From assembly GCF_051903065.1 (NCBI RefSeq), contig NZ_CP178438.1: a stretch of 64,000 nt of DNA; one strand, 5' to 3'. Position numbers and translations under genes: made by a program. The notes below the pieces were generated by a model. It was not told where the DNA came from and ran no database searches. It saw only the letters and a program-made list of their open reading frames with translations. The stretch is from Escherichia coli. GTDB taxonomy: Bacteria; Pseudomonadota; Gammaproteobacteria; Enterobacterales; Enterobacteriaceae. How positions within the stretch are numbered: the stretch's first letter is position 1; each line of letters opens with the position of its first letter. This document shows positions 4,488 through 4,900 of the stretch, piece after piece.

Positions 4488-4900
4488 CTCACCTTTCCCC
4501 ATTAAATACCAACGACACTCTCTAGTGTTTAAATATAATAATGGCTGATTATTATATTTGAATAGGATTATAATAAATGTTCTGTACAACATTTCCTACA
4601 TAAGTAGGAATTACAGACATGAAGGCCCTTTCCAAGTAACTCCATGGGGCTTTAATATATTTGGAATAGTATATTTAAGATGCCACTGTTTGGTTGAATA
4701 TTAGGCATATGCTCTTTTTTGAAATTTATCGGTGGCTGCCGTTAGTATTCGCTGTCCCCATTGCAAGCTCCTGGTGGTAACCACTGAATCCCCCATACTT
4801 GAACTGACTTTTTATCCTCCGACTTTCATCCTGTTCTGACTCCACCTTTTCTTTTCTGCTCTACACTATCTACAGACCAATCATAAAGGCACATACGATC

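Follow-up and report, generated by a model that had tools for sequence, protein, structure and literature searches.

What does the inverted repeat in the spacer between yegR and yegS do, and which regulator, if any, would bind it? We addressed this question in a 64-kb stretch of Escherichia coli DNA (hereafter the window, meaning the whole stretch analysed). The dyad is very probably the EvgA box of the yegR promoter, at which a phosphorylated EvgA dimer would activate a sigma-70 promoter of yegR. This explanation draws on a motif match, recurrence of the motif across a regulon, conservation and a box-promoter spacing obtained in the present study, and on EvgA binding and yegR induction taken from the literature. 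The site is already described for K-12; what we report is the same site in another strain, neither a new member nor a new variant.

Position and symmetry of the site

The 18-mer TTCCTACATAAGTAGGAA occurs once in the window, at 4593-4610, and its sequence context as read in the window is aacaTTTCCTACATAAGTAGGAATTacag. The first-pass annotation was right that this 18-mer exists, although it placed it at 4591-4608 and the true position lies 2 nt further to the right. It also called the 18-mer a perfect 18-bp palindrome, which is loose, and correctly described 7-bp arms around ATAA. These arms, TTCCTAC and GTAGGAA, pair perfectly; the centre is not self-complementary, so the site is a 7-4-7 dyad and not a full palindrome. 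The elements of the site and the two flanking genes are as follows.

4170..4487, minus strand: yegR, encoding a 105-aa lipoprotein of unknown function; the presumed regulated gene
4593..4610: probable EvgA box, TTCCTACA-TA-AGTAGGAA; 18-bp imperfect palindrome with perfect 7-bp arms; 1 mismatch to TTCYTACANNTGTARGAA; top matrix match in 64 kb; recovered by a de novo dyad search
4593..4599: left arm, half-site core TTCCTAC; intact in a divergent Escherichia locus (L011)
4604..4610: right arm, half-site core GTAGGAA; sole natural variant found, GCAGGAA, in 11 O6:H16-type genomes
4901-5800, plus strand: yegS, encoding a lipid kinase

The description of an AT-rich intergenic site between divergent genes holds. 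The spacer between yegR (minus strand) and yegS (plus strand) is 413 bp long and has a G+C content of 37.5%, which falls to 30% across 4500-4700, compared with 50% in the window. The YegR protein has no Pfam family match.

Dyads of this kind are common. The 64-kb window contains 45 perfect dyads with arms of at least 7 bp and spacers of 0-6 (0.7 per kb), and 16.5% of dinucleotide-preserving shuffles of the yegR-yegS spacer contain one or more; the real spacer contains three, where 0.23 are expected. Because dyads of such size are frequent, palindromicity alone was discarded as evidence. Its symmetry alone does not distinguish the dyad from chance, but its agreement with a specific motif does. 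The density of 0.7 per kb and the 16.5% of shuffled spacers would nevertheless suit a reading of the dyad as a functionless chance palindrome in AT-rich DNA, which we regard as highly improbable given the comparisons that follow.

Similarity to EvgA-activated promoters

In the EvgS/EvgA regulon of E. coli, the EvgA box carries the half-site TTCYTACA and lies upstream of ydeP, safA-ydeO, yfdX, frc (yfdWUVE), emrKY/evgAS and yegR. The half-site of our dyad resembles that of this box, the 18-bp inverted repeat TTCYTACA-NN-TGTARGAA reportedly described by Masuda & Church (2003, Mol Microbiol 48:699) and Itou et al. (2009, Biosci Biotechnol Biochem 73:870). A full-text literature search found no consensus strings of the EvgA motif, and the motif was therefore re-derived from sequence.

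The inverted repeat at 4593-4610 agrees with TTCYTACA-NN-TGTARGAA at 15 of the 16 specified positions, with half-site agreements of 8/8 and 7/8. When the window was searched with the consensus TTCYTACANNTGTARGAA, the only match with at most 3 mismatches other than this site (1 mismatch) was found at 27903 (3 mismatches). In K-12 MG1655, the consensus is matched upstream of frc without mismatches, upstream of safA with 1, upstream of ydeP with 2, in the emrK/evgA spacer with 2, and twice upstream of yfdX, with 1 and 3. Only one further match, with 3 mismatches and located inside ydeO, occurs in those 30 kb of K-12, and the chance expectation for the two K-12 loci is 0.13 and 0.31.

A search free of any assumed motif gave the same result. 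All 16,384 7-mers K were scored as K-N4-revcomp(K) in six upstream regions (yegR, safA, ydeP, emrK/evgA, frc and yfdX). The winners were TTCCTAC and TTCTTAC, with 11 summed mismatches, and their one-base relatives came next; the first unrelated family required 19 mismatches, and the mean was 33 (sd 3.7).

Furthermore, a symmetrised position matrix trained only on the six non-yegR sites places 4593-4610 at the top of the 64 kb, with 14.5 bits against 12.4 for the runner-up. This score was reached at 79 of 19.2 million shuffled positions (4.1e-6), which corresponds to an expectation of about 0.26 sites at or above 14.5 bits per 64 kb. The first-pass annotation had proposed that occurrence at chance frequency would count against an operator; about 0.002 such sites are expected in the 413-bp spacer. 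The yegR site scores below the training sites (14.5 vs 19.5-26.8 bits, the training scores being self-inclusive) because its centre reads TACA-TA-AGTA rather than TACA-NN-TGTA. The presence of one motif in co-regulated promoters and the binding reported in the literature (below) speak against a chance palindrome.

When 18-mers of the yegR spacer were simply compared for identity with those of the other upstream regions, the dyad also came first, at 65 vs 63. This margin is the further point in favour of a chance origin, and we set the comparison aside as support, since it is too noisy in AT-rich DNA.

Conservation of the site

An exact word of at least 28 nt within 4585-4618, which must cover the whole box, is present in at least 5,062 of 5,426 complete E. 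coli genomes (at least 93%). A further 309 records carry two mismatches in the 34-mer; in the one that was sampled, O157:H7 OK1, the changes fall at 4587 and 4616, both outside the box. Strain N96 retains the 18-mer and carries substitutions in both flanks, the nearest being at 4589-4590 on the left and at 4611, directly adjacent to the box, on the right. The sole in-box variant found is a T-to-C change that converts GTAGGAA to GCAGGAA in 11 complete genomes, including O6:H16 ETEC; the variant position, 432 in the E. coli E1624 locus (L008), corresponds to 4605 in the window.

Among seven diverse strains, 3 of the 57 columns in 4559-4615 are variable, compared with 31 of the 60 columns in 4616-4672; four of the seven were picked for low identity over 4572-4631, which inflates the variation but not its placement. 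The conserved block therefore begins at the distal edge of the box and extends toward yegR. In the hypervariable stretch 4616-4672, directly distal to the box, K-12 lacks 9 bp and strain 1517k has an expanded G run.

Our cross-species scan yielded only six loci. The L011 locus encodes a 91%-identical YegR in the unchanged gene order yegS-yegR-trhP. It preserves both arms, but AAAC now separates them and most of the surrounding sequence is no longer alike. The constancy of the box in E. coli genomes and the retention of the arms in L011 indicate purifying selection on the site, and poor conservation in related strains, the other outcome that the first-pass annotation had named as adverse, was not what we found. 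These observations also weigh against a chance palindrome: the box is near-invariant in about 5,400 genomes while adjacent DNA varies, and a divergent Escherichia keeps the arms despite a changed spacer.

No box was found upstream of the approximately 82%-identical YegR homologues of Klebsiella sp. BIGb0407, Cedecea sp. and an Enterobacteriaceae MAG. Because these distant homologues lack the box and their upstream DNA is unrelated, the recruitment of yegR to the EvgA regulon seems to be confined to Escherichia. In the three loci concerned (L013, L014 and L015), the unrelated DNA lies upstream of the match at 2501, 2501 and 677, respectively.

Predicted arrangement of the yegR promoter

The box ends 105 nt before the yegR ATG, and yegR is induced by EvgA according to the literature discussed below. 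Sigma-70-like -35/-10 pairs were scored downstream of each box, and three elements were predicted for yegR.

4557..4562, minus strand: predicted -35 element TTCAAA of the favoured yegR sigma-70 promoter
4535..4540, minus strand: predicted -10 element TATTAT of the favoured yegR promoter, starting 53 nt after the box
4567..4572, minus strand: alternative -10 element, a perfect TATAAT, starting 21 nt after the box

In these predictions, the best sigma-70-like site lies 53-54 nt after the box for yegR in the window, its L011 orthologue, safA, emrK, frc and yfdX. In K-12 yegR, the TTCAAA-N16-TATTAT site at such an offset ranks second; compared with K-12, one base is absent between the predicted -35 and -10 elements of the window. 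The exception is ydeP, whose top-scoring site is not at the 53-54 offset. With ydeP excepted, the predicted sites thus give regulon members a common box-promoter spacing. However, the safA/ydeP and frc/yfdX promoter pairs look paralogous, and the shared spacing therefore counts as fewer than six independent cases. A constant distance of 53-54 nt between the box and the predicted core promoter in five regulon promoters provides a testable geometry for EvgA activation.

From this spacing we infer a start site, a geometry and a mode of contact, assuming the usual 7 nt from the -10 element to the start site. Transcription of yegR would begin near 4528, with a leader of approximately 40 nt. The box would then span about -82 to -65, with its centre at -73.5/-74.5, a placement that we consider fairly probable. 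If the perfect TATAAT were used, the box would be centred at -41.5 in a class-II arrangement, which is possible but doubtful. This alternative element has no recognisable -35 element; it is invariant in E. coli, reads TGTAAT in L011 and has no counterpart in the other EvgA promoters.

According to the mechanism that we propose, EvgA, the response regulator of the acid-sensing EvgS/EvgA two-component system, would bind the box as a dimer upon phosphorylation. Its C-terminal LuxR-type HTH domains would each occupy one half-site, TTCCTACA and the near-mirror AGTAGGAA, and bound EvgA would promote transcription of yegR by sigma-70 RNA polymerase from TTCAAA-N16-TATTAT (4562-4535, minus strand). 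From this class-I-like upstream position, EvgA could act by contact with the C-terminal domain of the alpha subunit, by relief of H-NS silencing in the AT-rich spacer, or by both.

EvgA and related regulators

EvgA has a Response_reg receiver domain and a GerE/LuxR-type HTH domain and is a response regulator of the NarL/FixJ type. The GerE/LuxR-HTH family binds inverted repeats as dimers. Nearly all complete E. coli genomes carry evgA (5,398 of 5,426).

Among characterised homologues of EvgA, the closest is BvgA of Bordetella, which recognises inverted heptads TTTCCTA at the fha, bvg and ptx promoters. The regulator family is the same and the half-site near-identical, the window reading T-TTCCTA-CA at 4592-4600, and this likeness fits the homology between EvgA and BvgA. 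BvgA sites also resemble the EvgA box in that a dimer occupies an inverted repeat upstream of the core promoter. However, they belong to another genus and another regulon, and they form arrays of several dimers that reach the -35 region, whereas one strong dyad is evident here. A putative half-site-like TCCTATT lies at 4560-4566, at offsets 27-33 after the box.

Other LuxR/GerE-type operators, such as the 7-2-7 sites of NarL and the lux/tra boxes, are likewise inverted repeats of 16-20 bp bound by dimeric HTH proteins. Their half-sites and spacing differ from those of the yegR box, which can be read as 7-4-7 or 8-2-8. Their positions differ as well: about -42 for LuxR and TraR, against a predicted position of about -74 in the favoured geometry of the yegR box.

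The regulon was defined in K-12 MG1655, which carries the same 18-mer in the same surroundings. The motif, the gene and the position relative to yegR are all shared between K-12 and the window, with no essential difference; the present strain does lack the ogrK-yegZ P2 remnant downstream of yegR. Masuda & Church are said to have found in 2003 an 18-bp inverted repeat in six upstream regions that serve all seven directly EvgA-regulated operons. Gel shifts were reportedly obtained in that work on all six regions, and mutation of the ydeP and b1500 repeats reportedly abolished induction. The link between yegR and the EvgS/EvgA circuit has reportedly been known for K-12 since 2003.

Among the publications that we consulted, a review lists yegR among the promoters bound by EvgA (PMC8147483), and yegR was found to be induced along with ydeO, yfdX, emrK, frc and oxc, an effect credited to control by evgA (PMC5811628). 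A third paper marks EvgA-bound inverted repeats upstream of yfdX and yfdW, after Masuda & Church 2003 (PMC3720670). A Reg-Seq preprint contained no yegR promoter data. Taken with the EvgA motif match, the recurrence in EvgA-activated operons and the conservation, the binding listed in the review supports the original proposal of an operator for a dimeric transcription factor, in which the factor had not been named.

The site is real and functional but ordinary, and its interest is that it ties the yegR lipoprotein gene to the EvgS/EvgA acid-resistance circuit. Its near-invariance over about 5,400 E. coli genomes, with a sharp boundary at the distal edge of the box, may be mildly useful. In the nearest relative, strain 23CRST027 (NZ_AP045789.1, L018 43519-48177), evgA is intact, but the insertion of an IS5-family transposase divides evgS, whose pieces are annotated as pseudogene fragments. 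In the 23CRST027 lineage, the sensor driving the EvgA box may thus be inactive, and the site may be unused in some lineages. The arm mutation of O6:H16 ETEC and the broken evgS of the nearest relative constitute natural material on whether yegR induction is dispensable.

Neighbouring dyads and possible control of yegS

The spacer contains other symmetrical elements. A second perfect dyad with 7-bp arms, AAATGTT-CTGTAC-AACATTT, is located at 4575-4594; TGTACA, itself a palindrome, lies within it, and the dyad shares 2 nt with the EvgA box on the yegR side. Its arms are conserved in E. coli but not in L011, where only TGTACAGAACA remains. In addition, an inverted repeat with 15-nt arms (93% complementary) spans 4528-4562, and its loop carries a 1-nt indel relative to K-12. 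This repeat creates mirror-image promoter-like sites, TTTAAA-N16-TATTAT on the plus strand and TTCAAA-N16-TATTAT on the minus strand. Its transcript would fold into an AU-rich hairpin, but folding of the full leader does not reach significance (z = -1.3).

The excess of perfect dyads in the spacer (three vs 0.23 expected) and the dyad abutting the box mean that other factors may bind nearby. The box could be the operator of another dimeric regulator, instead of or besides EvgA, or could control the divergent yegS as well as yegR, and the single box between emrK and evgA, which faces two divergent genes, is a possible precedent for bidirectional use. We consider this very unlikely. The sequence matches the EvgA motif specifically, which argues against another regulator. 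As for yegS, its ATG is 290 nt away, and variation in the spacer peaks on the yegS side of the box, where the 9-bp indel is found. No plus-strand promoter-like site lies at the regulon-typical offset, the nearest downstream candidate being at 4719-4748, and regulation of yegS by EvgA was not found in the literature consulted on EvgA targets.

A different possibility is that the dyad acts at the RNA level, as a hairpin serving as terminator or leader structure in a transcript that crosses the spacer, for example one that runs toward yegS from the plus-strand TTTAAA-N16-TATTAT (4528-4555). A stem of 7 bp with a 4-nt loop would have a folding energy of about -9 kcal/mol on either strand (z-scores -3.9 and -2.6). 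The plus-strand promoter-like site lies upstream, and RNA polymerase SELEX placed RNA-polymerase-binding promoters in both directions in the yegR/yegS spacer, together with H-NS (PMC3946193). However, no T-run follows the dyad on either strand, no terminator-like site occurs in 4400-4950, and the spacer has no Rfam match, so we rejected assignment to intrinsic terminators or structured RNAs. Furthermore, no compensatory changes were seen in the arms, which are simply invariant, and a hairpin would leave the recurrence of the half-site upstream of other EvgA-controlled operons unexplained. We regard this reading as extremely improbable.

Because the box abuts the dyad at 4575-4594 and lies upstream of the repeat at 4528-4562, the spacer could also be conceived as an integration module, in which a second regulator, or a plus-strand transcript with the box hairpin, modulates the control of yegR by EvgA. 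Alternatively, EvgA might act throughout the regulon from a fixed position of about -74 by a mechanism undescribed for its family. Such extensions of the EvgA-box reading appear unlikely to us.

Other observations in the window

Positions 1-25181 of the window are E. coli chromosome that matches strain 23CRST027 (NZ_AP045789.1) except for two SNPs, at 12349 and 12758, which lie beside and inside IS1397, respectively. From 25182 onward, the window departs from that record, which has IS903B and IS1A insertions in the fimbrial usher gene yehB, and annotation coordinates past 25181 are shifted relative to it. Judging from this junction, the window comes from a close but different strain, because it leaves NZ_AP045789.1 exactly at the IS903B/IS1A insertions of that record.

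The trhP (yegQ)-yegR interval (3841-4169) contains the CyaR sRNA at 3923-4008 (Rfam, 100.7 bits). It lacks the cryptic P2 remnant (ogrK, yegZ; prophage PR-X) found there in K-12; no yegR-yegZ unit therefore exists in this strain, and yegR is monocistronic. A gatR homologue at 5882-6655 is intact, compared with the IS3-disrupted gatR of K-12. At 9985-11248 and 12405-13753 lie, in this order, gatZ, which carries a frameshift annotation in the nearest record, where its sequence is identical, and the IS3-family element IS1397, which sits between gatY and fbaB. A TPP riboswitch is located at 21696-21792, upstream of thiM. Finally, two tandem matches to the OrzO-P antitoxin sRNA family, at 44863-44936 (88.8 bits) and 45471-45546 (99.9 bits), point to a duplication of the zor-orz type I toxin-antitoxin locus, which probably lies between yehK and yehL.
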